NCBI GenBank assembly: GCA_045661145.1
Contig: JAZRFC010000048.1
Span: 2,071-66,070, forward strand
Direction: 5' to 3'
Source of the DNA: Clostridia bacterium
GTDB lineage: Bacteria; Bacillota; Clostridia; UMGS1883
DNA: 64,000 nucleotides
How positions within the stretch are numbered: the first letter of the stretch is position 1; every line of letters starts with the position of its first letter. Shown one piece after another: positions 15,321 to 63,497 of this stretch. The translations under genes were made by a program, and so were the position numbers. The notes beneath the pieces were generated by a model, which did not search any database, was not told the origin of the DNA, and saw only the letters and a list, made by a program, of their open reading frames with translations.

Positions 15321-15324
15321 AGTG

Positions 15325-39848: not shown

Positions 39849-40472
39849 ATGCATGGTATCGGGAAAAGACTTTTTGCTGTCATAAACTATCCGAGAACGC
39901 TTCCGGTTTATTTGTGTGCAATATGTTCCAGACAAAAACATCTGATTAAAGCAGATGTTGCCAGATGGAATGAAATTGACCAGATAAAATTCAATTTATT
40001 TGAATCGATTAATTGGTATATGACGTATAAAAAGGAGTTTCGCAATCTTATTCAGCATCGTTTGAAAAATCCATCACGCACATTTGCAGCTATGGTGCAT
40101 TTCGTAATTGCCCGCATTTTATGGAAACCGATGGAAAGCCTTTACATATACACAGAAAATATAGGCGGAGGCCTTTATATTCAGCATGGCTTTGCCACTA
40201 TTATAACGGCTGAAAGAATAGGCGAAAACTGCAGAATATACCAGCAGGTAACTATTGGCTATAAAAACGGAGCCTCTCCCCCTGTTTTAGAAGATAATGT
40301 TTCTGTTACCTGCGGTGCAAAAGTGCTGGGTGATATAACAATGCATTCGGGCAGTTTGGCAGCGGCAGGTGCTGTTGTTGTTAAGGATGTTCCCGAAAAT
40401 GCCATCGTGGCAGGTGTTCCTGCTAAGGTGATTGGGTACAAGGATGAAAAAAACCTCAATTTTCAGGGCTGA
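39849..40472 (+). CDS. Left-handed beta-helix O-acetyltransferase (serine acetyltransferase-like)
   Basis: Hexapeptide repeats (IGENCRIYQQVTIG...VSVTCGAKVLGDITMHSGSLAAAGAVVVKDVPENAIVAGVPAKVI). Confidence 0.8.
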   Translation: MHGIGKRLFAVINYPRTLPVYLCAICSRQKHLIKADVARWNEIDQIKFNLFESINWYMTYKKEFRNLIQHRLKNPSRTFAAMVHFVIARILWKPMESLYIYTENIGGGLYIQHGFATIITAERIGENCRIYQQVTIGYKNGASPPVLEDNVSVTCGAKVLGDITMHSGSLAAAGAVVVKDVPENAIVAGVPAKVIGYKDEKNLNFQG

Positions 40473-40590
40473 AGACAGTGATTATATAGGAAAAAATAAC
40501 AATCATATACTTGTGGAAGCAAGAACTTTATGGTATAATTAATAAGATAATGGCATTTTTTTACATATTACAGAAAGAAGATGCAAATAT

Positions 40591-42891
40591 ATGGCAAAAA
40601 CTTATGAAAGAAAAAAAGAAAGGCAAAATAATATTTTGTATACCGTTGTCACTGCAATTTTAATTTGTGCGGTGTTTTTTGCTATGGTTGTTTCATTTTA
40701 TTTTGAAGCTGAGGACGAAGCATATGAAATGCTTCACATTCAGACAAAACAGATTAAAGACGACCTTACTTTGCAGATGAAGTCAGACAAAGAAAATCTT
40801 GTTACCATGGCGAACTTTGCGGCAAAGCTCTATGCAGACGGTGAAAGTTATGAGCGTATGTTTGACTCATTTAAGCCTATCGGCTTATTCTCGAGAATCG
40901 GTATTTTAAACCCTGACGGCACCTTTATTACCAAGGATGAAACCGTTAATTTAAGAGATAGGCTCTCTTTTGAGGAAGAAGCCTTAAAGGGTGAACATAT
41001 CACAGGCAGAACACAGAGCTACTCAAGACCGGGGGAGGAGGTAGTTCGAAGCGTTGTTCCCTTTCAGGTAAACGGGGAAACCGTCGGTATTATATACGGT
41101 ATCATTAAGATTGAAACCATCAACGAAAAATACAATAACATGGCTCGGGAATTAGATGCGCAGCTTTTCGTTTATGATAAAGAAACCGGAAAGTTTATTA
41201 TAGATACAATTGATAAAAATCCCGGTGAGTTGTCAAATTTTAAAGACAGAGAATATAATGACGGCTATTCCTATGAGGCTTTGGAAACTACTGACAAAGG
41301 ATATTCCTCGTTCAAATCCAAGTTTACAGGTGAAGATTTGTATATTCACTATTCTACGATTGAAGATTTTAATTGGGGTATAATGCTTGCCCGCTATGAA
41401 ACACAGGTGTTTGCGGAAACACATAAAATTTTCCGAAATTTAGTTTTTAGTTTTACTTTAGTAATTTTAATTATAGCTGTTTACCTGCAGTTGGTTTTAA
41501 AAAGAGAGAGAGACAGAACGAAACTGCAGGCAGAATCTTCAACTATCAGAAAGCTTCTTCTGGAAATAGCTGAAGAGTACACAAATGTTACTGAAGCGAT
41601 GAAGAAAATTAAGGAATTTTCAAACGCACGTTCTGCTTTTTTTGCGGATACGGACGGGGAAGATTTCTTCTATATCAAACCGTCTTTAAGAGAAAAGCTT
41701 TTAGTAGGAGCTGACAGGAAATATTTCCAAACAGAGCTTTTCAGGTATGCTGCAAATATTCATAATAAAAGAAAATCAGCTATTGGTTTTATGCAGATTG
41801 TCCCGAACAAGCACCTTGCTAAAACCAATCGGGAACTATATCAATTTTTAATAAATCACAATATCAATGACATATCCTTTGCAATTGTCACAGATAAGAA
41901 TAACCATGCGGGAATTCTGGGAACGATTAATCCGAAGAAAAGCTCTTTTACCCGAAAACTCCTTGAGGAAGTTGCAGTTTGTTTTTCTATTGCTATGTAC
42001 AATAAAAAACATCTTAATAAAACAGAGCTTGCCGCAACAACTGATTCTCTTACAGGGGCATTAAATCGTGTGGCATATAAAAAAGATATTTTGAAATTAG
42101 ACGATGAGAAACCTGAAGAATTTTCCTGTATTTATATTGACGTAAATGAACTTCATCTCAGAAACAACAAATACGGACATGCTGCAGGCGATGAAATGCT
42201 TATCTATATTGCCAATACCTTGAAAGAGGTGTTCTACGGACATAGTATTTACCGTATGGGCGGAGATGAGTTTTTAGTATTCACAAAGGATACCACACAG
42301 GAAAAGATTAAAGAGAATATAGAAATATTTATCAGCCAATTAAAACCCATGGGATATAATGTGGCAATAGGTATGTCTTACAGAAGCCAGAATACAAACT
42401 GCGAAGAAATGGTTCGCGAAGCTGAAATAAGAATGTATGAAGCGAAAGCACAGTACTATCAGAATAAAGACAATAGCAGTGTATCTGAGGATAAAGACAA
42501 AGAATATGTGTATACAAAAACGGGCATCAAAGAAATTGATACAATGATATCTGTCATAAAGGAAAACTACAACGGCATTTACAGAGTGTCTCTTGAGAAT
42601 GATAATGCTCATCGCATACTTATGCCTGCATATCTCGGATATAACGAAGATGAAGAAAACTTTTCAAAACTTTTGGCAAAATACATTGATGAGATTGTGC
42701 ATCCCGATTTCCACAGAGCTGTTATGAGCTTTCTGAATTATGATGCATTAAGAAGACAATTGCTGGAAGGCAAAGTACCGACAATTACATATAAAAAAAT
42801 ACACGGTGAAGCAGTTACACTCAGTGTCTATAATTTAACCGATGATAAAGGCGACGTAAAAGATACTCTTTGGGTTTTTGCTAACGAGTGA
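40591..42891 (+). CDS. Membrane sensor diguanylate cyclase: TM, Cache-like, TM, GAF-like, GGDEF, then a C-terminal PAS-like domain
   Basis: 766 aa. The extracytoplasmic region between two TM helices resembles dCache. An intact GGDEF domain is present (DSLTGALNRVAY, IDVNELHLRNNKYGHAAGDE, YRMGGDEFLVF), followed by ~150 extra C-terminal residues. Confidence 0.85.
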   Translation: MAKTYERKKERQNNILYTVVTAILICAVFFAMVVSFYFEAEDEAYEMLHIQTKQIKDDLTLQMKSDKENLVTMANFAAKLYADGESYERMFDSFKPIGLFSRIGILNPDGTFITKDETVNLRDRLSFEEEALKGEHITGRTQSYSRPGEEVVRSVVPFQVNGETVGIIYGIIKIETINEKYNNMARELDAQLFVYDKETGKFIIDTIDKNPGELSNFKDREYNDGYSYEALETTDKGYSSFKSKFTGEDLYIHYSTIEDFNWGIMLARYETQVFAETHKIFRNLVFSFTLVILIIAVYLQLVLKRERDRTKLQAESSTIRKLLLEIAEEYTNVTEAMKKIKEFSNARSAFFADTDGEDFFYIKPSLREKLLVGADRKYFQTELFRYAANIHNKRKSAIGFMQIVPNKHLAKTNRELYQFLINHNINDISFAIVTDKNNHAGILGTINPKKSSFTRKLLEEVAVCFSIAMYNKKHLNKTELAATTDSLTGALNRVAYKKDILKLDDEKPEEFSCIYIDVNELHLRNNKYGHAAGDEMLIYIANTLKEVFYGHSIYRMGGDEFLVFTKDTTQEKIKENIEIFISQLKPMGYNVAIGMSYRSQNTNCEEMVREAEIRMYEAKAQYYQNKDNSSVSEDKDKEYVYTKTGIKEIDTMISVIKENYNGIYRVSLENDNAHRILMPAYLGYNEDEENFSKLLAKYIDEIVHPDFHRAVMSFLNYDALRRQLLEGKVPTITYKKIHGEAVTLSVYNLTDDKGDVKDTLWVFANE

Positions 42892-42911
42892 TTAAACGGA
42901 GGAACAACAAA

Positions 42912-43298
42912 GTGATACTGCAACTAATCAAATTTGGAGTGGTAGGCGTTATTGCTACCTTTGTAGACGTGGGAGTTCTTGTCGTATTAAAGGAACTGCT
43001 TCACGTGGATATTTTGCTTGCTTCGGCAATTTCCTTTTGTGCTTCCGTTACAGTAAATTACATTTTGAGTATGTCCTTTGTTTTCAAAAGAAAAAAACAA
43101 AGCAAGCTCAAGGAATTTATTATATTTGTATTACTCAGTATTGGCGGACTGTGCTTAAACCAATTGATTTTATGGATTGGAGTTAAGTTTACGTCTGTGT
43201 ATTATCTGATAGTAAAATTGTTTGCCGTGGTAATTGTACCGATTTACAATTTTATAACAAGAAAAATTTTTTTAGAGGCAAAAGGGAAATCGTTATGA
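42912..43298 (+). CDS. GtrA-family membrane protein (polyprenyl-phosphate sugar translocase-like)
   Basis: LIKFGVVGVIATFVDVGVLVVL and four TM segments. GTG 42912, preceded by GGAGG, was preferred over GTG 42888. Confidence 0.8.
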   Translation: MILQLIKFGVVGVIATFVDVGVLVVLKELLHVDILLASAISFCASVTVNYILSMSFVFKRKKQSKLKEFIIFVLLSIGGLCLNQLILWIGVKFTSVYYLIVKLFAVVIVPIYNFITRKIFLEAKGKSL

Positions 43299-43840
43299 AC
43301 AGTGTTTTTAAAAAAGACCTATACAGATATTACGGTGAAAGCGGAGAACCGTTTTTGAAAAAGGTGTTCCTTCCCCTCGAAATAAAATACATATCTGTAT
43401 TCCGAAAAGCAAATATGTGTAAATTCCTGCCTCTAAAACTTTTTTATATGTTAAGGCTCATGCATATGTCGAGCAGGACACAAATTCAGATTCCTGCAAG
43501 AACAAGCATAGGTGAGGGGCTGTATATCGGGCATCTCGGCCGTGTGATAATTCATCCCGATGCAAAATTGGGTAAAAACATTAATATTGCAACAGGTGTA
43601 ACAATAGGGATGGAAAACCGCGGAAAAAGAAAAGGTGTGCCCGAAATTTCTGACAATTGCTGGATTGGTACAAATGCCGTCATAGTGGGAAATATTAAAA
43701 TAGGCAGTGATGTTCTCATTGCACCGCTTACCTATGTTAATTTTGATGTTCCCGACCACAGCATTGTTATAGGAAATCCCGGAAAAATAATTCCTAAGGA
43801 AAATGCCACCGCAGACTATATTTGCAACTGCATACATTAA
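43295..43840 (+). CDS. Left-handed beta-helix O-acetyltransferase (second copy)
   Basis: 181 aa with hexapeptide repeats (IGEGLYIGHLGRVIIHPDAKLGKNINIATGVTIG...IGTNAVIVGNIKIGSDVLIAP). Confidence 0.8.
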   Translation: MNSVFKKDLYRYYGESGEPFLKKVFLPLEIKYISVFRKANMCKFLPLKLFYMLRLMHMSSRTQIQIPARTSIGEGLYIGHLGRVIIHPDAKLGKNINIATGVTIGMENRGKRKGVPEISDNCWIGTNAVIVGNIKIGSDVLIAPLTYVNFDVPDHSIVIGNPGKIIPKENATADYICNCIH

Positions 43841-43855
43841 TAAGGGAGTGGCGAA

Positions 43856-45361
43856 TTGAATAATAAAGATTCAAGAATTAAAAATAATTTAATATCGTCA
43901 CTTGTTTATCAGGTTGTGCTTATATCACTGAGTTTCCTCCTGCCGAGATTATATCTTGAAAATTTTGGTTCAGAGGTTAACGGTGTACTTTCGACCATAA
44001 AACAGATTTTTATGTATCTGTTCCTTTTGGAAGCTGGCGTAGGTCTTGCCACAACACAGGCTCTTTATAAAAGAATCGGGGAAAAGGATTACAAGAGTGC
44101 AAACGAAGTTCTTTCTGCCACCAATTCTTATTATATCAAAACAGGAATAATTTACCTAGCCATCGTACTTGTTATTGCCATTGTATATGCTTATGTAATA
44201 CCAACCTCAATAGACAGCAATGTAGTGTTTTTAATAATTATATTAACTGCTTTGCCCGCACTTTTCAGTTATTTTGTTCAGGCAAAATACAGAATACTTA
44301 TGGAGGTTGACGGAAGAAAGTATGTAATAAATAACTCTGAAACAATTCTTCAGCTTGCTTCAAATGCAGGCAAAATACTTGTTTTGGTTTTAACAGACAG
44401 TCTTCTTCTTATTCAGCTGGTTTATTGCATAATGTCACTTATTCAGCTTGCATATTTATATTTTTATGCAAGGCAGAGATATAAATGGCTTGATTTAAAT
44501 GTAAAACCTGATTTTGAGGCTATTTCACAGAAAAACTCGGTATTGGTACATCAGCTTTCAGGTATGGTATTCAATAATACCGACGTAATACTTATTTCCG
44601 TTCTTTGCGATTTTAAGGCGGTAAGTATTTATGCCATATATAATATTTTCTTTTCTCAGGTGCAGAATTTTATAACAAGTGTGGTTTCGTCCTTTACTTT
44701 CGCATTGGGACAGATGTTTCATACTGACAGAGAAAAGTTTGACAAGCTGTTTAATGTATACGAAACTTTTTACATAATGGCAACTTCTCTCATTTATACT
44801 CTTATGGCAGTATTTTTATTGCCTTTGATACAGATATATACGAGCGGAATAAACGATGCACAGTACACAAACACATTACTTGTATTGCTTTTTGTAATAA
44901 TGAATTTGCTCTCCAACTGTAAAATCCCTGCCAACAGTGTTATTGAATATTCGGGCGATTTTGAAAAAACCCGTTCCTATGCAATATGGGAAATGGTTAT
45001 AAATATCACGGTTTCCATTGCCGCAATTCTTTATATGGGAATATGCGGGGCAATAGTAGGAACAATTGCGGCGCTTTTATACCGCGGAGCAGTTACAATT
45101 TACTATTCAAACAGAAAAGTTCTTAAAAGAAGTCAGATGCATACATATAAAACCCTGATTTCAAACTGTGCGGTATTTGCTCTGATTATGGGAATATTTT
45201 TTGTTGACACATTCAGTAATGTTTCCTTCTTACAATTGCTAGCAAAAGGAGTTGTACACTCGGTATGGATTGCAGGATTGTACTTACTTGTAAACCTTGT
45301 ATTCAATAAGTCTGCTTTTAAAACTATTTTTGAAGTATACAGGGGGAATAAAAATCAATGA
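43856..45361 (+). CDS. Wzx-type oligosaccharide flippase (MOP superfamily)
   Basis: 501 aa with about 12-14 TM segments, inside the glycosyltransferase cluster. Confidence 0.8.
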   Translation: MNNKDSRIKNNLISSLVYQVVLISLSFLLPRLYLENFGSEVNGVLSTIKQIFMYLFLLEAGVGLATTQALYKRIGEKDYKSANEVLSATNSYYIKTGIIYLAIVLVIAIVYAYVIPTSIDSNVVFLIIILTALPALFSYFVQAKYRILMEVDGRKYVINNSETILQLASNAGKILVLVLTDSLLLIQLVYCIMSLIQLAYLYFYARQRYKWLDLNVKPDFEAISQKNSVLVHQLSGMVFNNTDVILISVLCDFKAVSIYAIYNIFFSQVQNFITSVVSSFTFALGQMFHTDREKFDKLFNVYETFYIMATSLIYTLMAVFLLPLIQIYTSGINDAQYTNTLLVLLFVIMNLLSNCKIPANSVIEYSGDFEKTRSYAIWEMVINITVSIAAILYMGICGAIVGTIAALLYRGAVTIYYSNRKVLKRSQMHTYKTLISNCAVFALIMGIFFVDTFSNVSFLQLLAKGVVHSVWIAGLYLLVNLVFNKSAFKTIFEVYRGNKNQ

Positions 45362-46092
45362 GTATTCCAAAAGTAATTCACTACTGCTGGTTTGGAAAAG
45401 GCAAAATGCCTGCACTTTCTGAAAAATGCATTGAAAGCTGGAAAAAATACTGCCCTGAATATAAAATAGTTTGCTGGAACGAAGACAATTTTGATATAAC
45501 ACAAAACAATTATGCCAGGGAAGCGTATGAGGCAGGTAAATGGGCTTTTGTCAGCGATTACGTCAGACTTAAAGTCTTGTATGACGAGGGCGGAATTTAT
45601 CTTGACACAGATGTAGAGCTTATAAAACCCCTTGACAAGCTTATAGAAAAAAGCGGATATATGGGATTTGATGATAACGGAGTTATATCAACAGGTCTTG
45701 GATTTGCCTGCGAAAAGGGAAATGAACTTATAGGTGCTCTTCTGAAAGATTATGAAGATATACATTTTTTGCTTTCTGACGGCACTTATGACCTTACTCC
45801 ATGCCCTGACAGAAATACAAAAACTATGCAAGAACTAGGACTTGATATCAGTATCCAAAAACAGCGTTTTATGGGGATACAAATGCTTCCCGAAGAATAT
45901 CTTTGCCCTATGAAATATTATACGGGAAAAAAGATAATAACCGAAAATACTTATTCCATACATCATTTTTGTGCATCGTGGACATCAAAAACCGCCAAGC
46001 GGACCCTGTTTGTAAAGCGGATTATAGGTGTAAAGCTGTACGATAAACTGTACGGAAAATTTTTACATAAAGTTAAATGGCTGGAGTGGTAA
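45358..46092 (+). CDS. GT32-like glycosyltransferase (DXD sugar-transferase family)
   Basis: IPKVIHYCWFGKG...VSDYVRLKVLYDEGGIYLDTDVE. Confidence 0.8.
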   Translation: MSIPKVIHYCWFGKGKMPALSEKCIESWKKYCPEYKIVCWNEDNFDITQNNYAREAYEAGKWAFVSDYVRLKVLYDEGGIYLDTDVELIKPLDKLIEKSGYMGFDDNGVISTGLGFACEKGNELIGALLKDYEDIHFLLSDGTYDLTPCPDRNTKTMQELGLDISIQKQRFMGIQMLPEEYLCPMKYYTGKKIITENTYSIHHFCASWTSKTAKRTLFVKRIIGVKLYDKLYGKFLHKVKWLEW

Positions 46093-47645
46093 GTTTGCCC
46101 GAAAAAGTATTGAAAAAACTTAATACACATGTCTTGCCCGAATGGAAGGTTTGCTTTATTTCAGCTCTTTTGGTTGGATTATTTGCCCATTTATACAAGA
46201 TAACAAATTGGCTTCCCAATTGGGATTCATTAGTGTTCAGGTATGATTCACAGAATATGATTACTCTTGGAAGATGGTTTTTGCCTGTTGTCTGCTCGCT
46301 TAGCTCGTTTTATGACCTGCCGTTTTTAAACGGTATAATTGCAATTATTTTTCACGCGTTGAGTGCCGTGTGTATTTGCAGGATACTTAATGTACAGAAA
46401 AAAATTACCGCAGGCTTAATAGGTGCAGTTATCGTTTCGTTTCCGACGGTTACTTCGGTTATGATGTATAACTATGTGGCTGACGGTTACAGTATTGCAT
46501 TCTTCCTTTCAACTCTTGCGGCACTGTATATGACGAAAGAAAAACCGAGGTATCTTCTCTCAGCGGTACTTATTGCTTTATCAACGGGGATTTATCAGGC
46601 GTACATAACCGTTACAATAATGCTTGTTTTACTCCATTTAACAGATGAAATGATTTTCAGTAACACCTCTTTTCGGGTTATTTTGAAAAAGGCTGTGTGT
46701 ATGCTTTTATCGGGAGTTTCAGGTGTAGCATTATACAGCATTATACTTAAAGTAACTCTTGGTCTCTTTTCTGTAGAATTGCTTGATTATCAGGGAGCTA
46801 ATGATGCGGCATCACTTTCAAATATAGATATACTTGCTTCGCTTTACGTTGTTAAAGAAACCTTTATTAAATGCTTCTTTGATTTATCGGGCGGTGTAAA
46901 TGTATATATTGTACTTAATACCGCTATATTGATTTTTACACTCGTGTATTACCTTAAAGGTGTAATAAAGAACAGACTCTATAAAAATCCTGCAAACATC
47001 TTTATGATTATTATTTTGAGTGTTTTGCTCATATTTGGAGCAGGAGCACTTGCTTTTATAAATGCAGGTGTTGACTATCACAACCTGATGCTTATGGGAT
47101 ATGTTGTATTCTATTTGTTTTTCCTGATAATTTATGAAAGAGGGGAAGAAGCAAAGGAAAAACATACTGCTATCAAATGCTGGAGTGTACTTATAACAGC
47201 AGTTGTAATCATCGCAAATCAGGTTGTCATATCGAATGTAAGCTACCATAAAGCACAGATAGCTTATGAAAAGTCCTATGGGGTTTTGATGCGTATAGCA
47301 GACCGTATAGAACAGACCTCGGGAGCCGCAGATTGTGACAAAATTCTTGTAATCGGTGCTCTTGATAACAGTGACGCATACAGCGTTAATCTCACACCTG
47401 ATATTACGGGAATAACAGATGGATATATAATCCGTGCAGATGATGAAACAGTGGGACAAAGTGTATTCTGCAGTGCTGTTAACGATTACTGCGGTAAGAA
47501 TTACGAATTTGTAAGCGGTAAAGAAAAGAAAAAAATTACTCAAAGAGAAGATGTTAAATCTATGGGAAAATGGCCGTCAGAGGATTGTGTGGCAATCATA
47601 GATGATACAGTTGTTATTAAACTTGGTACAGAGGGTGAAAAGTAA
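46077..47645 (+). CDS. GtrII-type (Glucos_trans_II-like) polytopic membrane glycosyltransferase
   Basis: 522 aa with about 11 TM segments. The N-terminal HLYKITNWLPNWDSLVF motif is typical of glucosyltransferase-domain proteins. The start is uncertain. Confidence 0.65.
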   Translation: MAGVVSLPEKVLKKLNTHVLPEWKVCFISALLVGLFAHLYKITNWLPNWDSLVFRYDSQNMITLGRWFLPVVCSLSSFYDLPFLNGIIAIIFHALSAVCICRILNVQKKITAGLIGAVIVSFPTVTSVMMYNYVADGYSIAFFLSTLAALYMTKEKPRYLLSAVLIALSTGIYQAYITVTIMLVLLHLTDEMIFSNTSFRVILKKAVCMLLSGVSGVALYSIILKVTLGLFSVELLDYQGANDAASLSNIDILASLYVVKETFIKCFFDLSGGVNVYIVLNTAILIFTLVYYLKGVIKNRLYKNPANIFMIIILSVLLIFGAGALAFINAGVDYHNLMLMGYVVFYLFFLIIYERGEEAKEKHTAIKCWSVLITAVVIIANQVVISNVSYHKAQIAYEKSYGVLMRIADRIEQTSGAADCDKILVIGALDNSDAYSVNLTPDITGITDGYIIRADDETVGQSVFCSAVNDYCGKNYEFVSGKEKKKITQREDVKSMGKWPSEDCVAIIDDTVVIKLGTEGEK

Positions 47646-48506
47646 GTGATATATTTTTGTGCTGACGATTATGGTCTGAATGATATATCATCATTGCATA
47701 TACAGGAGTGTATCGATAAAGGTGCACTTAATAAGGTTAGTGTGTTTCCCAATTTTGAACAAGTTGATTTGGGCAAAATATCAGAAAATAAAAACATCAG
47801 AATTTCTCTGCACTTAAACCTTGTTGAGGGGAAGTGTATGGCAGAGGCAGGCGAAATAAATCTGCTTGCAGACGAAAACGGGAATTTTAAGCATACCTTT
47901 GTAGGTCTTTTTAAACTCAGTTTATTTCACAGAAAAAAACTTGAGGAGGAAGCGTATAAAGAAATCAAGGCACAGGTTTTATTCTGGAAAAGCATTTTGC
48001 CGGAGGATATACCTTTTTGTATCGACGGCCATCAGCATACTCATATGATTCCGGCTGTGTTTAAAGCCCTGATTAGAGTTTTAAGTGATGAAAAAATCAA
48101 TTTAAAATATATGCGGATTCCGGCAGAACCGATTTTGCCGTATATAAAAACACCATCTCTTTATTTTACATACAGTGCAGTAAATATTATTAAACAATGG
48201 CTTCTTAAATTCTTGTGGCTGATTAATAAAAATCAGTCAGGAAAATACAAAATACCAACATCGCATTTTATGGGAATCCTTTTTTCGGGAAATATGGATG
48301 AAAAAAGAGTAAAAAAAATCCTGCCAAAATACATTAAAATGGCAGAAAAAGACGGCAGGGATATAGAAGTGTTATTCCATCCCGGATATATTGACAAGGA
48401 TGAATTTAAATACGAAAATATAGCTTTTAAGGATTTTTATTTATCGGAAAACAGAAAAACAGAATTTGATTCTGTAATGAAAATATTAGAAAGAAGTGTG
48501 CTGTAA
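47646..48506 (+). CDS. ChbG/HpnK (YdjC-like) carbohydrate deacetylase
   Basis: MIYFCADDYGLN...HLNLVEGK...DGHQHTHMIP. Confidence 0.8.
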   Translation: MIYFCADDYGLNDISSLHIQECIDKGALNKVSVFPNFEQVDLGKISENKNIRISLHLNLVEGKCMAEAGEINLLADENGNFKHTFVGLFKLSLFHRKKLEEEAYKEIKAQVLFWKSILPEDIPFCIDGHQHTHMIPAVFKALIRVLSDEKINLKYMRIPAEPILPYIKTPSLYFTYSAVNIIKQWLLKFLWLINKNQSGKYKIPTSHFMGILFSGNMDEKRVKKILPKYIKMAEKDGRDIEVLFHPGYIDKDEFKYENIAFKDFYLSENRKTEFDSVMKILERSVL

Positions 48507-49186: not shown

Positions 49187-49206
49187 CGGAAATTGGGGTG
49201 AAGAAA

Positions 49207-50325: not shown

Positions 50326-50403
50326 GCCGGAAGCGAATAATCCGAACCCGCCTGAAACAGCGTTGTTTCGGTATATTTCGGCTAAAGTAAAGGTTTGGTT
50401 AAT

Positions 50404-51405: not shown

Positions 51406-51425
51406 TTTTGGGAGGGATACGGACA

Positions 51426-55989: not shown

Positions 55990-57194
55990 AAATTCTGATG
56001 GTAAATAAATTTCTGTACCCTCGCGGAGGCAGTGAAAGCTATATGCTCTACCTTGGCGAGCATCTTAAAAAGATTGGTCACGAAGTTGAGTATTTCGGTA
56101 TGTACGACGAAAATAATACGGTAGGAAACTCCGCAGGGTTATATACTCAAAATATGGATTTCCACTCAAAAGGACTTGCAAGGTTTTTATATCCCTTTAA
56201 AATAATTTATTCCTTTGAAGCAAAGAAAAAGATTATGCAGGTAATAGATGATTTTAAACCCGATATAGTTCATATGAATAATATAAACTTTCAGCTTACA
56301 CCGTCAATCATCTATGGCATAAAGAAGAAAGGTATATCCCTTGTCCAGACTGTACACGACTATCAGATGATTTGTCCCAATCATCTTCTCTATAACTTTG
56401 ACAAAAACACACCCTGCGAAAAGTGTGTTAAAGGCTCGCATATAAACTGTATTAAGAATAAATGTATTCACGGCTCTCTTGTTAAGAGTATTATAGGTGT
56501 TATAGAAGCAAAGTTTTATTCGATGTTTAAAACCTACAAAAAGGTGGATTTATATGTCTGCCCGAGTAATTTCCTTGAAAACAAGCTTTTGTCGGCAAAG
56601 GGGTATTATGAGGGAAAGACCAAAACAATACATAATTTTATCGACAAAGAAAAATTTTCCAATAATGACCGAAAGGAAGATTCCTATATTGTATTTATAG
56701 GAAGACTATCCAAGGAAAAAGGTATTGAAAATATTGCAGGGGCAGCCAGGCTTCTTCCCCAATATGATTTTGTGGTAGCAGGAAGCGGTCCTGATGAAGA
56801 TATGCTGAAAGATATTCCAAACGTCAATCTGGCAGGCTTTCTTACCGGGGACAAGCTTACAGAACTTATGGGAAATGCAAAAGTTCTTCTTTTGCCGTCT
56901 GTGTGCTATGAAAACTGTCCGCTTTCCATACTTGAGGCACACTCTTTGGGTGTTCCCGTCGTTACCATGAACAGCGGAGGAATGGCAGAGCTTGTAAAAG
57001 ACGGTGTTACAGGAACCCTTGTAAAAGAGCCCACTCCCGAGGGAATTGCACTTAAATTAAAGGAAGCTATTGAAAATGAGGACTATTACAATAGTCTAAG
57101 TGAAAATTGTAAAAAAGAAAAAGACAATATATTAAGTGTTGAAGCATACGCTGATATTTTAATCAAAGAATATGAAAAACTAGCCCGGAGGTGA
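55986..57194 (+). CDS. GT4-family glycosyltransferase
   Basis: MKILMVNKFLYPRGGSE..., with the C-terminal region YENCPLSILEAHSLGVPVV. Confidence 0.85.
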   Translation: MKILMVNKFLYPRGGSESYMLYLGEHLKKIGHEVEYFGMYDENNTVGNSAGLYTQNMDFHSKGLARFLYPFKIIYSFEAKKKIMQVIDDFKPDIVHMNNINFQLTPSIIYGIKKKGISLVQTVHDYQMICPNHLLYNFDKNTPCEKCVKGSHINCIKNKCIHGSLVKSIIGVIEAKFYSMFKTYKKVDLYVCPSNFLENKLLSAKGYYEGKTKTIHNFIDKEKFSNNDRKEDSYIVFIGRLSKEKGIENIAGAARLLPQYDFVVAGSGPDEDMLKDIPNVNLAGFLTGDKLTELMGNAKVLLLPSVCYENCPLSILEAHSLGVPVVTMNSGGMAELVKDGVTGTLVKEPTPEGIALKLKEAIENEDYYNSLSENCKKEKDNILSVEAYADILIKEYEKLARR

Positions 57195-58255
57195 AAAAAG
57201 TGCCGCAGCCGAAAGTAAGCATTATCGTTCCCGTGTATAATGTAGAGAATTATCTTGAAAGATGCATAAATTCCTTGAGAAATCAAACTCTCCGCGATAT
57301 TGAAATAATTCTTGTAGACGATTCTTCAACCGATTCGTCGCTTGAAATATGCAATAAGATGGCAATGGAAGATTCCCGCATAAAGGTTATTCATAAGGTG
57401 AACGGGGGTGCAGGTCTTGCGCGGAATGAGGCACTTCGGATTGCAACGGGGGAGTATATCGGCTTTCTGGATTCTGACGATTTTGTTGAGGAAGATATGT
57501 TTAAAACACTTTATGATAAAGCGGAAAAATATAGTTCAGACCTCGTAATGTCAGGAGTCTTGTTTGTAGACGGAAATATGTTCAGTAAAGAGGGCGAATG
57601 TATCCGCAAAACATATTTTGATAGGGATACTCATTTTGAGACGGAGGAAGAACTGAAAAAATTAAGAATGGGTATTGTGGGCGCATTGCCCGAGGATGCT
57701 GATGACAGTAAATACGGAATGAGCATCTGGAAGAATCTGTTCAAACACCAAGTGATAAAGGACAATAACATTGTTTTTAAATCCGAACGTGAGATGCTTT
57801 CAGAGGATGCGCTTTTTATGATAGATTATATTTCCTGCATTAAAAAGGCAACGGGAATTAACGAAGCATTTTATAATTACTGCAGAAATGAGGATTCAAT
57901 TTCAAAATCGTATAAAAAGGACAGATTTGAAAAAAGCCTTGTCTTTGTAAACGAGGTTCAGAAAAGATTTGAAAAAGATATTGCTCCCGAAGAATATCAG
58001 ATTTATATATGTAGATTCTGGCAGGCAATGTGCAGGGTGATTTGCTCTCAGGAAATAATGTATGCCGCGGATAACAACATTAAATATACTGACTTAAAGA
58101 AAAGGTTAAAGGCAGTGTGCACACACAGTTTAACTGTCAGGGCAATGAATTCATACCCAATTGGAACACTGCCCTTTAAACAAAGAGTGTTTGCATACTG
58201 CATAAAGTACAGATTATACTTTCTGTTAAAAGTGCTTGTAGGATTAAGAAGATAG
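57191..58255 (+). CDS. GT2-family glycosyltransferase
   Basis: VSIIVPVYNVENYLERCINSL...VDDSSTD...LDSDD. The start is GTG 57191 or GTG 57200. Confidence 0.85.
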   Translation: MKKVPQPKVSIIVPVYNVENYLERCINSLRNQTLRDIEIILVDDSSTDSSLEICNKMAMEDSRIKVIHKVNGGAGLARNEALRIATGEYIGFLDSDDFVEEDMFKTLYDKAEKYSSDLVMSGVLFVDGNMFSKEGECIRKTYFDRDTHFETEEELKKLRMGIVGALPEDADDSKYGMSIWKNLFKHQVIKDNNIVFKSEREMLSEDALFMIDYISCIKKATGINEAFYNYCRNEDSISKSYKKDRFEKSLVFVNEVQKRFEKDIAPEEYQIYICRFWQAMCRVICSQEIMYAADNNIKYTDLKKRLKAVCTHSLTVRAMNSYPIGTLPFKQRVFAYCIKYRLYFLLKVLVGLRR

Positions 58256-58264: not shown

Positions 58265-59284
58265 ATGTTTTTTTCTGTAATAGTGCCTGTTTATAAGGTT
58301 GAGAAGTATTTATCGGGATGTATAGAGAGCGTTTTAAATCAGACCTTTTCTGATTTTGAACTTATTCTGGTTGACGACGGCTCTCCTGATACTTGCCCTC
58401 AAATTTGTGAAGAATATGCCAAAAAAGACAACCGCATAAAGGTGCTCCATAAGGAAAACGGCGGACTTGCAAGTGCAAGAAGAGCAGGAATAAAGGTAGC
58501 CGAGGGTGACTATGTATTTAATCTTGATTCAGACGACCTTATTGAAAATGACACTTTGGAATATGCGTATAAGATAATAAAAGAGACGGCTTGTGAAATT
58601 GTAGCTTTCTCATACAGATGGGTTAAAAACGGTCATACTGTAAATATCACAAATGACGGTCTTGATGAGGGTTTATATAATAAAAATGATATTGAAAAAC
58701 AAATTTTCCCAAGGCTTCTTATGGACAAAAATATGAATCATATTTCATATTATCTGTCGGGCAAGGCGGTAAAAAGAGACCTTTTGACACCTCATCAGCT
58801 TAATGTAAGTGAAAAAATATCATTGGGTGAGGATTTATGTTGCACAGTTTCTTGTTATCTTCACGCAAAAAGCGTATACATAAGCAAAAAAACGGCGTAC
58901 TTATACACCGTAAGAGAGGATTCCTTGTCAAAGGAGTTTAACACAAAGCAAATTTATCTCATAGAAGATGTTATAAATGAAATAAGCAAAAATGATATGG
59001 AAAAAGTGGTTGATTTTAACGAACAGCTTTGCCGTTACTCCTGTTTTATGTGCTTTACAATATTAGCATCGGCAGCAGAGGGCAATCACTTTAAAAGTAT
59101 AAAAGCGATAAAGGAAAATATCATAAACTCACTTCATAACGAAAAAATTTTGTGTGCGGAGTTTGACAATATATCAATTAAAAGCAAAATATCCATATTC
59201 TTTATGAAGAAGAACTGTTACAGAACAGTGTTTTATTTCCTTAATCTGTGCAAAAATATCAAGAAAATTCTTAAGAAAGGGTGA
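58265..59284 (+). CDS. GT2-family glycosyltransferase
   Basis: FSVIVPVYKVEKYLSGCIESV...VDDGSPD...LDSDD. Confidence 0.85.
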   Translation: MFFSVIVPVYKVEKYLSGCIESVLNQTFSDFELILVDDGSPDTCPQICEEYAKKDNRIKVLHKENGGLASARRAGIKVAEGDYVFNLDSDDLIENDTLEYAYKIIKETACEIVAFSYRWVKNGHTVNITNDGLDEGLYNKNDIEKQIFPRLLMDKNMNHISYYLSGKAVKRDLLTPHQLNVSEKISLGEDLCCTVSCYLHAKSVYISKKTAYLYTVREDSLSKEFNTKQIYLIEDVINEISKNDMEKVVDFNEQLCRYSCFMCFTILASAAEGNHFKSIKAIKENIINSLHNEKILCAEFDNISIKSKISIFFMKKNCYRTVFYFLNLCKNIKKILKKG

Positions 59285-59292
59285 AACATCTG

Positions 59293-60357
59293 ATGAAGCC
59301 TGAAATATCAGTAATTATGAGTGTGTATAATGGTGAAACATACCTTAGAGAAGCGATAGAAAGTGTCATAAAGCAGACTTTCAGGAGCTGGGAGCTTATT
59401 ATTATAAATGATTGTTCAACGGATTCTACGGGTGAAATTCTTGCGGAATTTGCATCAAAGGATGAACGTATAAAGGTACACCCCAATGAAGTTAATCTCA
59501 GATTACCAACATCGTTAAACAAAGCAATTTCTTTGTGTAACGGTAAATACATAGCAAGAATGGATGCAGATGACATCTGCCTTCCCGACAGACTTCAGAA
59601 GCAATATAAATTTATGGAAGAAAACAGTGATGTGGCATTATCTTCCTGCAGATTTATGACTGTTAAAAATGGTGTGTATTCATCGGGGGGAGCAGGGGGA
59701 AGATGTGACAATAAGGCTTTACGTGCAATGCTTCTCGTTGCAAATCCGATACTTCATCCCGGTGTTATTGCCAGGGCGGAGGTTATGAAAAAGTTTAATT
59801 ATGACACCACCCTTACCTGTACCGAGGACCTTGAATTGTGGACAAGAATGGCAATGGAGAATCAGAAAATTGAGATTCTTCCCGAGTGCCTTTTGATATA
59901 CAGATTGCACGATAAGCAAATTACAAGCACTACCCTTGAAAGACAGCATATTGAGGTGCTTAAAATACAGAATAAATACTATGCTTCGCTTATTCAGGAA
60001 ATGGATAAAGAAATGCAGGAGTTTTATATCAGCGGGATTTATTTTAAAGAGCATACTGATATACATAAATTACTCCAATACGCAAAATGGCTTAGAAGTG
60101 TGGCACCTAAAAACTTTGATAAGCATACCATAAACTATGTACTTTTTGAAATTTTAGCAGAATACAAAAGATGCGGTGTGCCAAAATCCGAGGTTTTAAA
60201 AGCCATGCTCGGGTTTACCCCATTATTTTTAGCAAAAGAAATCATCCGAAGAAAACAAACTGCCCGAAAAGACATTGAAAAATGTATGAGGGTTGCAAAA
60301 AATATTGGTCTTAGACAGACCGCAGGAACGAAGGAGTTTCCAATTTTCGAAAAATAG
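59293..60357 (+). CDS. GT2-family glycosyltransferase
   Basis: ISVIMSVYNGETYLREAIESV...INDCSTD...MDADD. Confidence 0.85.
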   Translation: MKPEISVIMSVYNGETYLREAIESVIKQTFRSWELIIINDCSTDSTGEILAEFASKDERIKVHPNEVNLRLPTSLNKAISLCNGKYIARMDADDICLPDRLQKQYKFMEENSDVALSSCRFMTVKNGVYSSGGAGGRCDNKALRAMLLVANPILHPGVIARAEVMKKFNYDTTLTCTEDLELWTRMAMENQKIEILPECLLIYRLHDKQITSTTLERQHIEVLKIQNKYYASLIQEMDKEMQEFYISGIYFKEHTDIHKLLQYAKWLRSVAPKNFDKHTINYVLFEILAEYKRCGVPKSEVLKAMLGFTPLFLAKEIIRRKQTARKDIEKCMRVAKNIGLRQTAGTKEFPIFEK

Positions 60358-60375
60358 ATTACAGGAGTCTGAAAA

Positions 60376-61743
60376 ATGAAATTTTTTGAATATCCTTATG
60401 TGATTATAACTATTCTTGCGATAATTTTTCTTGCAATGGGACTTATCGGACTGTATTTTACGATGAAATCGGTAAAAACAGCGAAAGGAACAGCGGAGAA
60501 AAATTTTTGCGGGATAGGTAAAATAGAAAATGATTTTGAAAAAGCGGGAGCTTCCAGAAAAAATCGCTCAATTGTATATATTTCAATATCCCTTGACAGT
60601 ATGAAAAGACTGTATTCGGAATCAAAGGCTATAAGAATGTATGAGCAACTTAAAAGAATTTTACTGAGTCATTTTTGCCTTAGTATAGGCGGAGAGATTT
60701 CCCTTTACGGCACAGAAAATTTCATTGCACTAAACGGTCTGGAATCAGCTGAAACAGTTAAGTGTATTGAAAGTTGTTTTGAAGAAATTAACGAAGCTTT
60801 TGTAAACCACGGTGCAGTGGGTGTTGTCCGTATAAATTTTGGATACCACCAGACCAGCTCAACCGAGGTTTCGTTCAAAACTGCCCTTGGGCGAGCAAAA
60901 CAGGCTTGCAGTATGGCAGAAGATAAAGATGTTTTATACTGTCAGTGGGACAGCTCAAACGGAAAAGAATTTGAAAGAAAACTAAAAATCGAAAATAACA
61001 TACAAAACGAGATTGACAACAACAGATTTTTTCTCGAGTATCAGCCCATTTTGGACGCAAAGACAAATAAAATTATGGGTGCAGAGGTACTGTCAAGACT
61101 TAATTCACCTACCGAGGGGGTGTTGACACCGTCAGCGTTCCTTTCTGCGGTAAATAATGTTGGATTAAACGAAAAGTTCGATTATTATATTTTTGAAAAA
61201 AACTGCAAATGGATTTCAAGTGATAAAGAAAACCGAACTAAATATGTATATACAATAAATTTTTCACGCTACACTCTTTGCGACCCGAATCTGGCAGACA
61301 GGATAATAGAAATTGTAGAAAAATACGGCATTGACTATTCGTGTATAGCTGTTGAAATTCTCGAGGATAAAAGTCTCGATAAGGATGAAAAATCCACAAT
61401 GATAAAAAATTTAACCCGTTTAAAAGAAAAAGGAGTTTTAATTCTTCTCGACGATTTCGGAAAGGGCTATACAAGTTTTAGCGATTTAACGGATTTTGAT
61501 ATAAATATTGTAAAAATTGATAAATCAATAACCCAGAACGCAACGAATCAGACAGGACTTTTAATTCTCAAAAATATTATAAGAACCGCACATGACTTGG
61601 GATTTAGGACACTATGCGAGGGCATAGAAACAGAAGAGCACAGAAAAACAGCCGTGGAGTCAGGTTGCGATATGCTTCAGGGATATTATTTTTACCGTCC
61701 GATACCCGTTACACAATTAGAAAAATTATTTGAGAAACAGTAA
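60376..61743 (+). CDS. Membrane-anchored degenerate-GGDEF / EAL protein (putative c-di-GMP phosphodiesterase)
   Basis: An N-terminal TM helix is followed by a GGDEF-like fold with YGTENF in place of GGDEF. The EAL domain landmarks are EYQPIL, EVLSR, EILED, DDFGKGYTS, KIDKS, EGIETEE and QGYYF. Confidence 0.8.
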   Translation: MKFFEYPYVIITILAIIFLAMGLIGLYFTMKSVKTAKGTAEKNFCGIGKIENDFEKAGASRKNRSIVYISISLDSMKRLYSESKAIRMYEQLKRILLSHFCLSIGGEISLYGTENFIALNGLESAETVKCIESCFEEINEAFVNHGAVGVVRINFGYHQTSSTEVSFKTALGRAKQACSMAEDKDVLYCQWDSSNGKEFERKLKIENNIQNEIDNNRFFLEYQPILDAKTNKIMGAEVLSRLNSPTEGVLTPSAFLSAVNNVGLNEKFDYYIFEKNCKWISSDKENRTKYVYTINFSRYTLCDPNLADRIIEIVEKYGIDYSCIAVEILEDKSLDKDEKSTMIKNLTRLKEKGVLILLDDFGKGYTSFSDLTDFDINIVKIDKSITQNATNQTGLLILKNIIRTAHDLGFRTLCEGIETEEHRKTAVESGCDMLQGYYFYRPIPVTQLEKLFEKQ

Positions 61744-61753
61744 GGTGATTTTT

Positions 61754-62677
61754 ATGTTATCTGTCATCATTCCTGCTTATAACGAAGAGAAGTGTATAAA
61801 GCGTGCATATAACGCAATACATTCTTTGTTAGCGGAAAATAACATCGAAAGCGAATTTATTTTTGTGGATGATGGTTCGCAGGACCGGACCTACGAAATG
61901 ATAGCCGTGCTTTCTTCAGAGAAAGACAACGTGGTGGGACTGCATTTTTCCAGAAACTTTGGAAAAGAATCTGCTATATCTGCAGGTTTATCCGCAGTAA
62001 ACGGTGCTTGTGCAGTCGTCATTGACTGTGACCTTCAGCACCCTCCCGAAAAAATAGTTGAAATGTACCGTTTGTGGGAACAAGGATACGAAATTGTTGA
62101 GGGGATAAAAAAAGAGCGCGGACAGGAAAAGAAGATGCACAGTATCGGCGCAAAGTTTTTCTATTCCCTTATCAGCCGTATGGCAGGCTTTGATATGGCT
62201 AATTCATCAGATTTCAAACTTCTGGACAGAAAAGTGGTGGATGTGCTGAATAAAATGCCCGAAAGAGGATTTTTCAGAGCGATCTCTTATTGGGTAGGAT
62301 ATAACAAGGCAACAGTTGAATATGATGTCGGGGAACGCGTGGACGGCGAATCCAAATGGTCAACAATGGGACTTGTAAAGTATGCACTTTCAAACATTTC
62401 ATCATTCTCTACTGCGCCAATGCAAACAGTAACAATTCTTGGATTTATAATGCTGGTAATATCAGTTATTTTCGGAGTATGGGCACTTATTGATAAAATA
62501 GTCGGAAGAGCTCTTGAAGGTATGACAACGGTTATAATTATAACTATCTTCATAGGAAGTATAATTATGATAAGCCTTGGCATTATAGGATACTATATTG
62601 CCCGTATTTACGAAGAAATCAAAGGCAGACCCAAATATATAATATCATCAACCACAAAGAGCACAGAGAGAAACTAG
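61754..62677 (+). CDS. GtrB/ArnC-like polyprenyl-phosphate glycosyltransferase (GT2 with C-terminal TM pair)
   Basis: LSVIIPAYNEE...VDDGSQD...SRNFGKESA...DCDLQHPPE, plus two C-terminal TM helices. The ATG at 61754 follows AAGGTGA. Confidence 0.88.
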   Translation: MLSVIIPAYNEEKCIKRAYNAIHSLLAENNIESEFIFVDDGSQDRTYEMIAVLSSEKDNVVGLHFSRNFGKESAISAGLSAVNGACAVVIDCDLQHPPEKIVEMYRLWEQGYEIVEGIKKERGQEKKMHSIGAKFFYSLISRMAGFDMANSSDFKLLDRKVVDVLNKMPERGFFRAISYWVGYNKATVEYDVGERVDGESKWSTMGLVKYALSNISSFSTAPMQTVTILGFIMLVISVIFGVWALIDKIVGRALEGMTTVIIITIFIGSIIMISLGIIGYYIARIYEEIKGRPKYIISSTTKSTERN

Positions 62678-62723
62678 GCAACTTTCATATACTAAATAAA
62701 TTGTATAAGGAGATTGTACGAGA

Positions 62724-63497
62724 ATGGAAAAGGTAATCACAAAAAGCATTTTAAAAGGTCTTGAAAATAATGAGTTTAAGATGTACTTGCAGTTTATAGT
62801 AGATAATAAATCTAAAAATATTATTTCCGCGGAAGCACTTTCAAGATGGGATAACCCGGAAAAAGGTGTTATAGGTCCGGGAAATTATATTGGAAATATG
62901 GAAGCAGAAGGACTTATCAGCAGGCACGATTTCTATATGTTTGAGCTTGCCTGCCGTCAGCTTGAAAAATGGAAAAATACTGAGTATGAAGATATTTCAA
63001 TCTCTTGTAACTTTACAAGAATAACTCTTTCTGAAGAGGATTGCATTGACAAACTTAAAACGATTTCCGAGTGCTATGATTTCGATAAATCAAAGCTTGC
63101 AATCGAAATAACCGAAGATGCAATGGAAAAGGATAGAGAAACTGCAAAGAAAAATGTCAGACTCTGCAAAGAGCTCGGTTTCAGAATTTATCTTGACGAC
63201 ATGGGATGCGGATATACATCTTTGGTTAACCTTTGTGACTATCCGATTGATGTCGTTAAAATTGACCGTGATATTCTGCTCAGAACCAATACTTCAAGAG
63301 GAAAAGCTTTGTTTTCAGGAATTGTGGCACTTGCTCACAGCCTGAATATATCTGTAATATGCGAGGGCGTGGAAACAGAAGAACAAAATACACTCGTATC
63401 CAAATCTGACTGTGATTATATTCAGGGGTGGTATTACGCAAAAGCTCTTCCTTTAGAAGAATGTGAAGCGTTTGTAGAAGACTATCATAAAATATAA
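62724..63497 (+). CDS. Stand-alone EAL-domain protein (putative c-di-GMP phosphodiesterase)
   Basis: 257 aa with EALSRW, CNFT, EITED, DDMGCGYTS, KIDRD, EGVETEEQ and QGWYY. Confidence 0.85.
   Translation: MEKVITKSILKGLENNEFKMYLQFIVDNKSKNIISAEALSRWDNPEKGVIGPGNYIGNMEAEGLISRHDFYMFELACRQLEKWKNTEYEDISISCNFTRITLSEEDCIDKLKTISECYDFDKSKLAIEITEDAMEKDRETAKKNVRLCKELGFRIYLDDMGCGYTSLVNLCDYPIDVVKIDRDILLRTNTSRGKALFSGIVALAHSLNISVICEGVETEEQNTLVSKSDCDYIQGWYYAKALPLEECEAFVEDYHKI

Follow-up and report, generated by a model that had tools for sequence, protein, structure and literature searches.

To our knowledge, the control of Gram-positive Wzy-type polymerization beyond tyrosine phosphorylation is poorly understood. 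Here we analyze a polysaccharide locus at positions 39822-63497 of a 64,000-nucleotide stretch of DNA from a Clostridia bacterium (GenBank assembly GCA_045661145.1, contig JAZRFC010000048.1, positions 2,071 to 66,070 of the forward strand; this whole stretch is referred to as the window). We focus on PCP-dGGDEF, in which a putative polysaccharide co-polymerase (PCP) is joined to a degenerate GGDEF domain. Like Wzc, the PCP-2a protein of the Escherichia coli group 1 capsule, PCP-dGGDEF is predicted to be a co-polymerase with two transmembrane (TM) segments and a large helical outer domain, it is encoded beside Wzy, and it carries a cytoplasmic domain after TM2, at the position of the regulatory domain. 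Unlike in Wzc and in CpsC/CpsD, the PCP-2b protein and bacterial tyrosine kinase (BY-kinase) of Gram-positive capsule loci, this cytoplasmic domain is a dead GGDEF fold in place of a P-loop tyrosine kinase, a tyrosine cluster is lacking, the locus encodes no CpsB-type phosphatase, and a second PCP paralogue without a cytoplasmic domain always adjoins. The kinase and cognate phosphatase of the class of PCP-2 proteins with a BY-kinase were not found in the window, and one relative, discussed below, has the set. A BY-kinase (ParA, AAA_31) or CpsB gave no match among window open reading frames (ORFs) of at least 150 aa, and neither was found in seven distant loci.

Membrane-anchored dead-GGDEF receptors encoded in polysaccharide operons are known from PelD (Pseudomonas and the Gram-positive Pel system), PssE (Listeria), and YdaK (Bacillus) (PMC4125290, PMC7112168, PMC9800504, PMC8461298). 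These are synthase-dependent systems in which cyclic di-GMP (c-di-GMP) is bound through an RxxD I-site (PMC8461298, PMC4125290, PMC7112168). The locus resembles them, those of Firmicutes included, in encoding a dead membrane-anchored GGDEF domain within a polysaccharide operon. It differs in that PCP-dGGDEF lacks RxxD and belongs to a Wzx/Wzy pathway, and in that the membrane part of PelD, PssE, and YdaK is not a PCP. Because the I-site that defines the PelD/PssE/YdaK/PopA-type receptors is lacking, we do not class PCP-dGGDEF with them.

Dedicated enzymes acting on one polysaccharide machine are exemplified by E. coli DgcC/PdeK-BcsA and DgcJ-NfrB (PMC7397504, PMC8669469). The locus analyzed here likewise ties a dedicated cyclase or phosphodiesterase to a single polysaccharide machine; BcsA and NfrB, however, are synthases with PilZ or MshEN receptors, whereas here the pathway is of the Wzx/Wzy type, the enzymes lie within the operon, and no canonical receptor is found. 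In Caulobacter, c-di-GMP binds HfsJ, a soluble glycosyltransferase (GT) of the Wzy-type holdfast pathway. Vibrio polysaccharide (VPS; VpsT/VpsR) and xanthan (Clp) are Wzy-type products that are under c-di-GMP control via transcription factors (PMC3359988). The product of our locus would be of the same Wzx/Wzy type, but VPS, xanthan, and HfsJ are not known to involve a PCP-GGDEF fusion or enzymes within the biosynthetic operon. A 2021 review of post-translational c-di-GMP control treats synthase-dependent polymers only (cellulose, alginate, Pel, and poly-N-acetylglucosamine) and leaves Wzx/Wzy unmentioned (PMC8461298). We found no description of a PCP/Wzz-GGDEF fusion or of c-di-GMP control of Clostridia Wzy pathways in a collection of papers that is incomplete, which is absence of evidence only.

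The locus comprises 21 ORFs, mostly overlapping, that encode Wzx/Wzy-type polysaccharide pathway proteins, and four c-di-GMP proteins are encoded inside it: a dCache diguanylate cyclase (DGC), PCP-dGGDEF, a membrane EAL protein, and a small EAL protein. The ORFs of a preliminary description, made from the sequence alone, recurred at the same coordinates, all co-directional on the + strand. We read the locus as a probable heteropolysaccharide operon of the Wzx/Wzy-dependent type, conserved in an uncultured gut lineage of Oscillospiraceae-like Clostridia and made up, in addition to the c-di-GMP enzymes, of a phosphoglycosyl transferase, seven cytoplasmic GTs, a putative divergent MOP flippase, Wzy, two paralogous PCPs, a Gtr trio, and acetylation/deacetylation enzymes. 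It does not represent a new signaling principle; what it offers is a concrete and widespread candidate for nucleotide control of Gram-positive Wzy-type polymerization. The PCP-dGGDEF family could tie a nucleotide signal directly to chain-length control. Its carriers are abundant uncultured gut commensals of humans and ruminants, and their surface glycans shape host and phage interactions.

The dead-GGDEF co-polymerase and the putative c-di-GMP enzymes of the operon

The two co-polymerase-like proteins and the three putative c-di-GMP enzymes are encoded as follows.

40591-42891, + strand: sensor diguanylate cyclase (GGDEF 3.6e-20; TM segments 15-33 and 284-302)
51408-52787, + strand: PCP1, co-polymerase-like, 459 aa, without a cytoplasmic domain (TM segments at both ends)
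52784-54649, + strand: PCP-dGGDEF (TM segments 13-31 and 437-455; GGDEF 2.3e-12)
60376-61743, + strand: membrane-anchored EAL phosphodiesterase with a putative degenerate GGDEF-like linker (EAL 5.5e-60; one N-terminal TM segment)
62724-63497, + strand: small soluble EAL phosphodiesterase (EAL 3.9e-59)

PCP-dGGDEF runs from TM1 through an outer PCP domain of ∼400 aa and TM2 to a cytoplasmic GGDEF-like domain (residues 466 to 606), as expected from the preliminary description, which had called it a PCP fused to a degenerate GGDEF domain. The same description had recognized two PCP-like proteins. Neither PCP1 nor PCP-dGGDEF of the window has a direct Wzz match, but Wzz matches are found in 33 of 46 members of the PCP-dGGDEF family (best, 8.9e-7), and the N-terminal family of PCP-dGGDEF aligns with PCP1 over 403 columns (hhalign 99.8%, E 1e-29; BLASTP E 2e-4). 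By these alignments PCP1 is a paralogue of the N-terminal part of PCP-dGGDEF. The AlphaFold2 model of PCP-dGGDEF (pLDDT 77) has an α/β base, long helices, and a GGDEF fold. Foldseek searches with the full-length model returned GGDEF domains exclusively (PleD, WspR, SiaD, LapD, and FimX; E ∼1e-6), whereas a separate model of residues 1 to 462 gave E. coli Wzc as the six best matches (E 2e-5 to 2e-4, probability 1.0), followed by KpsE. The TM-scores of these Wzc and KpsE matches are low (0.22), as expected with long flexible helices, and the Wzc match supports the predicted fold class, not a detailed match. Searches of PDB sequences with the PCP-dGGDEF profile gave GGDEF matches alone, and those with PCP1 and with the metallophosphoesterase of the locus gave no useful match.

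The GGDEF motif has degenerated to NGNGSF in the window protein and reads YNGxGQF family-wide (74 full-length members), and the metal and catalytic positions are lost. Two residues, N509 and D518, show no or almost no variation in the family alignment; by spacing, we take them to match N335 and D344, the guanine contacts of PleD. The dead GGDEF domain is conserved at 86.4% versus 87.1% for the outer domain in the close clade and at 28% versus 31% in the distant family, and as judged from conservation it is under selection for a noncatalytic function. Public records name PCP-dGGDEF homologues "diguanylate cyclase" (P0046, P0047, P0077, P0386, and others), which, given the family-wide YNGxGQF, is probably a systematic misannotation.

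The cyclase has the order TM segment, extracytoplasmic dCache domain, TM segment, linker of ∼170 aa, GGDEF domain, and conserved C-terminal domain of ∼130 aa. Its description as a Cache-sensor DGC with an intact GGDEF was borne out, the Cache assignment resting on a subthreshold match: dCache_1 matches the outer domain (250 aa) at 1.6e-8, which falls short of the gathering score, and many orthologues carry a precomputed dCache_1 match. The motifs RMGGDEF, DxLTG..NR, and N..GH..GD are all present. RMGGDEF is retained in 115 of 121 homologues and the substrate-binding motifs in 115 to 121 of the 121, and from these conserved catalytic motifs the protein looks enzymatically competent. At the I-site position it reads GHSIY, with no RxxD, so that product inhibition is not expected. 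The very conserved C-terminal domain (window positions 42496-42888, GIYRVSLE...TLWVF) gave no Pfam or PDB sequence match and by eye looks PAS-like. We also considered a docking domain shared by this C terminus and that of an HD-GYP response regulator in a distant locus (L084) and rejected it, since the two show no similarity.

Both EAL proteins contain every catalytic residue (E(A/V)L, N, ExxE, DD, K, E, and Q), and the motifs are retained in 68 orthologues of the membrane EAL and 30 orthologues of the small EAL; on the basis of these motifs both look enzymatically competent. The stand-alone EAL protein at the locus tail is as first described, and it is 74% identical to residues 212 to 467 of a 467-aa degenerate-GGDEF/EAL protein of a related genome (L143). 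The membrane protein had been read as a TM segment, a degenerate GGDEF domain, and an EAL domain. Its TM segment and intact EAL domain are clear, but the middle part is less so: NCBIfam models of GGDEF-EAL proteins align from residues 55 to 88 onward, and an hhalign comparison of the linker with the GGDEF profile is in register, pairing LYGTENFIAL with YRMGGDEFLVF, but is not significant (E 0.11). The linker is probably, on this faint resemblance, a GGDEF remnant. The membrane EAL may act as an eraser or, possibly, as a trigger enzyme.

Between 40591 and 62677, adjoining genes overlap by 1 to 16 nt or lie <20 nt apart, save for gaps of 69 nt and 35 nt; further gaps are found upstream of the cyclase gene (118 nt) and of the last gene at 62724 (46 nt). 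A consensus scan revealed a good promoter-like site at 39747-39775 upstream of the gene at 39822, which is preceded by a 127-nt leader, and no convincing internal terminator in the locus. With its tight junctions, the whole locus is packed like one long operon. The operon also contains GtrA, a GtrII-like GT, and a GtrB-like GT, a three-component Gtr-type set split across the Wzy locus that forms a side-chain glycosylation trio. In this it is like the GtrA/GtrB/GtrC system of O-antigen glucosylation, with GtrA, GtrB-like, and GtrII-type polytopic proteins present; unlike in that system, the genes are scattered in a Gram-positive Wzy locus, and GtrA and GtrB each share an overlap with a c-di-GMP gene (4 nt for DGC/GtrA and 14 nt for membrane EAL/GtrB). 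Such overlaps indicate, as far as gene layout can, translational coupling of the c-di-GMP genes to the glycosylation genes.

Does the locus encode a recognized c-di-GMP receptor? All 21 locus proteins were scanned with Pfam at E≤0.01 and with regular expressions. PilZ (RxxxR...[DN]xSxxG), MshEN, and GIL gave no Pfam match, and the regular-expression searches, including that for an RxxD I-site, were negative. Across 39000-64000, nothing in Rfam matched at E≤1, the c-di-GMP riboswitches RF01051 and RF01786 included, nor did the locus give any match at the gathering score, and Pfam identified no transcription-factor gene in the locus. The absence of PilZ, GIL, and a c-di-GMP riboswitch, remarked on from the sequence alone, is therefore confirmed by these searches.

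Conservation of the operon in close and distant relatives

A genome scan with narrower alignments returned the close clade only, a lineage of uncultured gut Clostridia from ruminants and humans whose records are labeled Oscillospiraceae, Acutalibacteraceae, Congzhengia, or Ca. Aphodoplasma. PCP-dGGDEF relatives are encoded in at least 270 genomes of the GTDB species set. Among those 270 genomes, 80 loci were retrieved with 10-kb flanks (72 to 90% identity), and the whole gene order is kept. In ∼80 species-level gut metagenome-assembled genomes, the comparative-genomics check thus found the signaling genes in synteny with those for the polysaccharide. Fifty loci extended far enough downstream to be scored: all 50 had the membrane EAL, 41 had GtrB, and 24 had the tail EAL inside the flank. 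The membrane EAL is retained between the third family 2 GT (GT2) and GtrB, and no other c-di-GMP gene of the locus is as constant.

The head of the locus is more variable. In most retrieved loci the 10-kb flank does not reach the cyclase; where the head is visible, the cyclase C terminus stands directly before GtrA or AcT2 in 13 loci, and the small EAL takes this place in 5. Positions also shift: a DGC-EAL pair occupies the locus head in two cases (L088 and L081), a DGC stands at the locus tail in another (L035), and a DGC of 46% identity stands at the head of a fourth (L060). Around 9 of 29 assessable loci have neither a DGC nor an EAL at the head. In L143 (9001-12906) and L144, a DGC orthologue (75% identity) and, after it, a 467-aa protein combining a weak GGDEF with an EAL domain lie away from polysaccharide genes, between Fur/rubrerythrin and ferredoxin/Crp genes, which suggests a mobile writer/eraser pair. 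The preliminary description had proposed a self-contained signaling module. Our data support co-inheritance, with genes that stay linked while shifting position, but the detached pair and the heads without DGC or EAL lead us to reject self-containment in the strict sense. The c-di-GMP enzymes are strongly, not absolutely, linked to the locus, with the membrane EAL fixed.

An exhaustive search of a 50%-identity representative library yielded 959 matches, 129 of them below 1e-30, and ∼75 full-length PCP-dGGDEF clusters at 25 to 48% identity. Distant loci (Lachnospiraceae and others) share a core of a Wzx-like protein, two family 4 GTs (GT4), Wzy, PCP1, PCP-dGGDEF, and the metallophosphoesterase, plus Bac_transf or a GT2, and in the loci examined PCP-dGGDEF always adjoins Wzy, the paralogous PCP, and the metallophosphoesterase. 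No GGDEF or EAL enzyme is nearby in the distant loci. Three of them contain bona fide HD-GYP genes (HD and HHExxDGKGYP motifs): in L086 the gene (11829-13160) directly follows PCP-dGGDEF, and a REC-HD-GYP gene stands at the locus head in L084/L111 (L084:1-495) and in L112 (382-1566). A close relative of L086, L140, has no HD-GYP gene. From these comparisons, the PCP-dGGDEF/PCP1/Wzy/phosphoesterase unit is old and widespread, and only the clade of the window has gained the putatively active cyclase and EAL enzymes.

Two observations in this wider set stand apart. Family members of 800 to 880 aa (P0272 and P0149) carry an extra ∼200 to 260 C-terminal residues whose family was not recognized, and L087 has a stand-alone Hpt protein at the locus head (1018-1368).

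Possible readers of the signal

From gene content, domain architecture, folds, motif conservation, operon-like packing, and synteny, we infer enzyme activities, ligand binding, and an effect on polymerization that together would make up the following mechanism. The lineage would have inserted a dedicated c-di-GMP module into the operon. On sensing an external ligand, the dCache cyclase would produce c-di-GMP at the membrane without product feedback, and the membrane degenerate-GGDEF/EAL enzyme and the small soluble EAL enzyme would remove it. The output would be post-translational, acting on the polymerase/co-polymerase complex. PCP-dGGDEF, apparently built like Wzc with a dead GGDEF domain where Wzc has its tyrosine-kinase domain, may use its retained guanine pocket to sense c-di-GMP, GTP, or, via a GGDEF-GGDEF contact, the cyclase itself; c-di-GMP or GTP would be read by noncanonical binding at the former active-site pocket. 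Sensing would change the oligomer state of the PCP and hence Wzy polymerization or chain length. Local post-translational control of the co-polymerase complex via the dead GGDEF domain is the mechanism that we prefer, at a confidence that falls somewhat short of even. In a broader and more doubtful form of the proposal, PCP-dGGDEF would represent a new class of second-messenger- or GTP-gated co-polymerase that, with PCP1 and the metallophosphoesterase, constitutes a widespread Clostridia-specific Wzy control unit into which lineages plug GGDEF, EAL, or HD-GYP enzymes. Its dead GGDEF domain would take the part of the Wzc tyrosine-kinase domain and read c-di-GMP at a site distinct from the I-site.

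The best argument for a c-di-GMP link is the presence of GGDEF, EAL, and HD-GYP enzymes beside the same unit in different clades, an association noted without formal statistics. The preliminary description had named the degenerate domain as a candidate reader, and PCP-dGGDEF is still the best, though unproven, candidate; its dead GGDEF domain keeps the presumed guanine-contact residues. Several results weigh against this role. The residues equivalent to RxxD are KSRT in the window protein, and the stretch is variable, gapped, and without an I-site in the 74 family members. With the Mg and catalytic positions lost, c-di-GMP binding would need a mode undocumented for receptors. Family members of ∼450 aa without a GGDEF domain exist (P0145, P0146, P0150, and others). 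No c-di-GMP enzyme was found within 10 kb in L083, L085, L087, L089-L106, L127, L129, L140, and L141; as most wider-family loci are of this kind, the fusion would predate the enzymes and work without locus-encoded ones. The detachment of the DGC-EAL pair from polysaccharide genes in L143 and L144 points the same way. A further idea, that the dead GGDEF domain replaces the BY-kinase, is weakened by L142, in which a canonical Wzz (271 aa), a ParA/AAA_31 BY-kinase-like protein, and CpsB are encoded (624-3142) directly upstream of, and co-directional with, an 83%-identical DGC; an SLH protein comes next.

These results can potentially be explained if the enzymes are real and co-expressed but their output lies elsewhere, in a receptor encoded outside the window, in a GT, or in the membrane EAL as a trigger enzyme, with the dead GGDEF serving as a nucleotide-independent or GTP-binding oligomerization or scaffold domain. 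We consider this a realistic possibility, to which we give distinctly less than an even chance. Besides the lack of an I-site, the scarcity of neighboring c-di-GMP enzymes across the family, and the detachable DGC-EAL pair, it would account for the fact that the invariant signaling gene is the membrane EAL (50/50 loci) and not the DGC, and the c-di-GMP-binding HfsJ of Caulobacter offers a precedent for a GT target. It fits less well with the recruitment of three enzyme classes beside the same PCP-dGGDEF module, for which chance is unlikely, with the retained guanine-contact residues, and with the failure of Pfam and regular expressions to find any other receptor-type domain in the locus proteins.

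Alternatively, the signaling genes may be passengers that set the global c-di-GMP pool upon transcription of the operon, for instance in a motile-to-sessile switch, and are coupled neither locally nor physically to the assembly machinery. The DGC and the small EAL do shift position and are sometimes missing from the locus, and a tail EAL lay within the flank in fewer than half of the loci (24/50). However, the DGC and the membrane EAL are anchored in the membrane, as is the machinery, both genes share overlaps with glycosylation genes, and without exception the membrane EAL is kept between the third GT2 and GtrB, all of which makes this explanation unlikely. Control at the RNA or transcription level by a c-di-GMP riboswitch or a c-di-GMP-binding transcription factor, as at several Clostridioides difficile loci, is highly improbable, since the 118-nt gap before the DGC and the 127-nt leader before 39822 could hold a regulatory RNA but 39000-64000 gave no Rfam match at E≤1 and the locus contains no transcription-factor gene.

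Other pathway genes and flanking sequence

The remaining genes of the locus are listed in order.

39822-40472, + strand: left-handed β-helix (LbH; hexapeptide) acetyltransferase, EpsC/CysE-like (NCBIfam EpsC 3.2e-27; ATG placed at 39849 in the preliminary description); probable first gene of the operon
42888-43298, + strand: GtrA-family small membrane protein (PF04138 1.4e-26); 4-nt overlap of its start with the DGC stop
43295-43840, + strand: second LbH acetyltransferase (Hexapep 1.4e-10)
43856-45361, + strand: Wzx candidate, divergent MOP-superfamily flippase, 501 aa, ∼12 TM segments (assigned through distant homologues)
45358-46092, + strand: GT32-like glycosyltransferase with a DXD motif (Gly_transf_sug 1.2e-17)
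46077-47645, + strand: GtrII-like polytopic glycosyltransferase (PF14264 1.1e-45)
47646-48506, + strand: YdjC-family carbohydrate deacetylase-like protein (PF04794 3.4e-34)
48506-49186, + strand: initiating polyprenol-phosphate sugar-phosphate transferase (Bac_transf 1.6e-64)
49198-50325, + strand: GT4 with a DUF1972 N-terminal domain (Pfam); core gene, kept in distant loci
50395-51405, + strand: membrane-anchored metallophosphoesterase (Metallophos 3.4e-12); single TM segment 32-50 after a K/R-rich N terminus
54685-55989, + strand: Wzy-type polymerase (Wzy_C 9.3e-10, 38.9 bits versus a 31.7 cutoff)
55986-57194, + strand: GT4 (Glycos_transf_1 7.6e-33); core gene, kept in distant loci
57191-58255, 58265-59284, and 59281-60357, + strand: three consecutive GT2 (Glycos_transf_2 4e-38, 9e-37, and 4e-36)
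61730-62677, + strand: GtrB/PgfS-like polyprenol-phosphate GT (fourth GT2); 14-nt overlap of its start with the EAL gene

Family matches agree with the earlier assignment of the initiating transferase, of the Wzy-like polymerase (its Wzy_C match lies above the gathering score), and of the two LbH acetyltransferases, the YdjC-type deacetylase, and the metallophosphoesterase (Pfam/NCBIfam). The tally of GTs needs a correction: two GT4 and one GT32-like protein were correctly counted, but GT2 proteins number four and not three, the additional one being the GtrB-like protein. This protein has two C-terminal TM segments and matches NCBIfam PgfS (5.2e-73) and ArnC-like (8.5e-46) models, both below their equivalog cutoffs. 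The GtrA and GtrII-like genes had been left out of the gene list altogether.

The Wzx assignment could be supported only indirectly. The candidate gave no direct Pfam, NCBIfam, or PDB sequence match. However, of eight homologues from distant loci (19 to 23% identity), three match Polysacc_synt (best, 3e-6), one matches Polysacc_synt_3, and one matches MatE. In hhalign, the profile of the candidate's family matched the window's own Polysacc_synt protein at E 0.002, versus 0.13 and 0.37 for control membrane proteins. On transitive homology, we take the gene product for a putative MOP flippase of divergent sequence. Another MOP-family flippase (Polysacc_synt/MurJ-like) is encoded upstream of the locus at 22559-24034.

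The metallophosphoesterase gene stands beside PCP-dGGDEF in every clade examined (L083-L087, L140, and L141 among them), and its catalytic domain is predicted to face outward. No LCP-type ligase is encoded in the locus. As a speculation, the phosphoesterase might process or release the undecaprenyl-pyrophosphate-linked polymer. Some clades may make a wall-associated or SLH-anchoring polymer instead of a free exopolysaccharide. Distant loci also include genes for a pyruvyl transferase (PS_pyruv_trans) and Glyphos_transf (L086:5702-6790; L140:5686-6756).

The genes 5′ of the locus are unrelated (PAP2, ZIP, flavoprotein, MATE, HAD, tRNA, LtaS-like sulfatase, and thyA/folA), and the rest of the window consists of housekeeping genes. 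At the other end, an SLH/PBP (SLH-domain) gene comes after the last EAL gene in a close relative (L001:21378-21866), and we therefore place the 3′ end of the locus at ∼63497. The LtaS-like sulfatase-family protein is encoded at 30814-32853 and the tRNA at 32963-33036. Farther upstream, window positions 10000-16000 have a low GC content (0.36 to 0.39 versus ∼0.44 on both sides) and may be an island; the ORFs of this stretch include an HNH endonuclease (12764-13231), a GDSL-like lipase, and an ORF with a 23S_rRNA_IVP domain (13975-15126). ORFs without any Pfam match were found on the - strand at 27321-29039 (572 aa) and 25161-25655 (164 aa). Tandem paralogous genes for Na_Ca_ex transporters lie at 9576-10532 and 10762-11715 (- strand).

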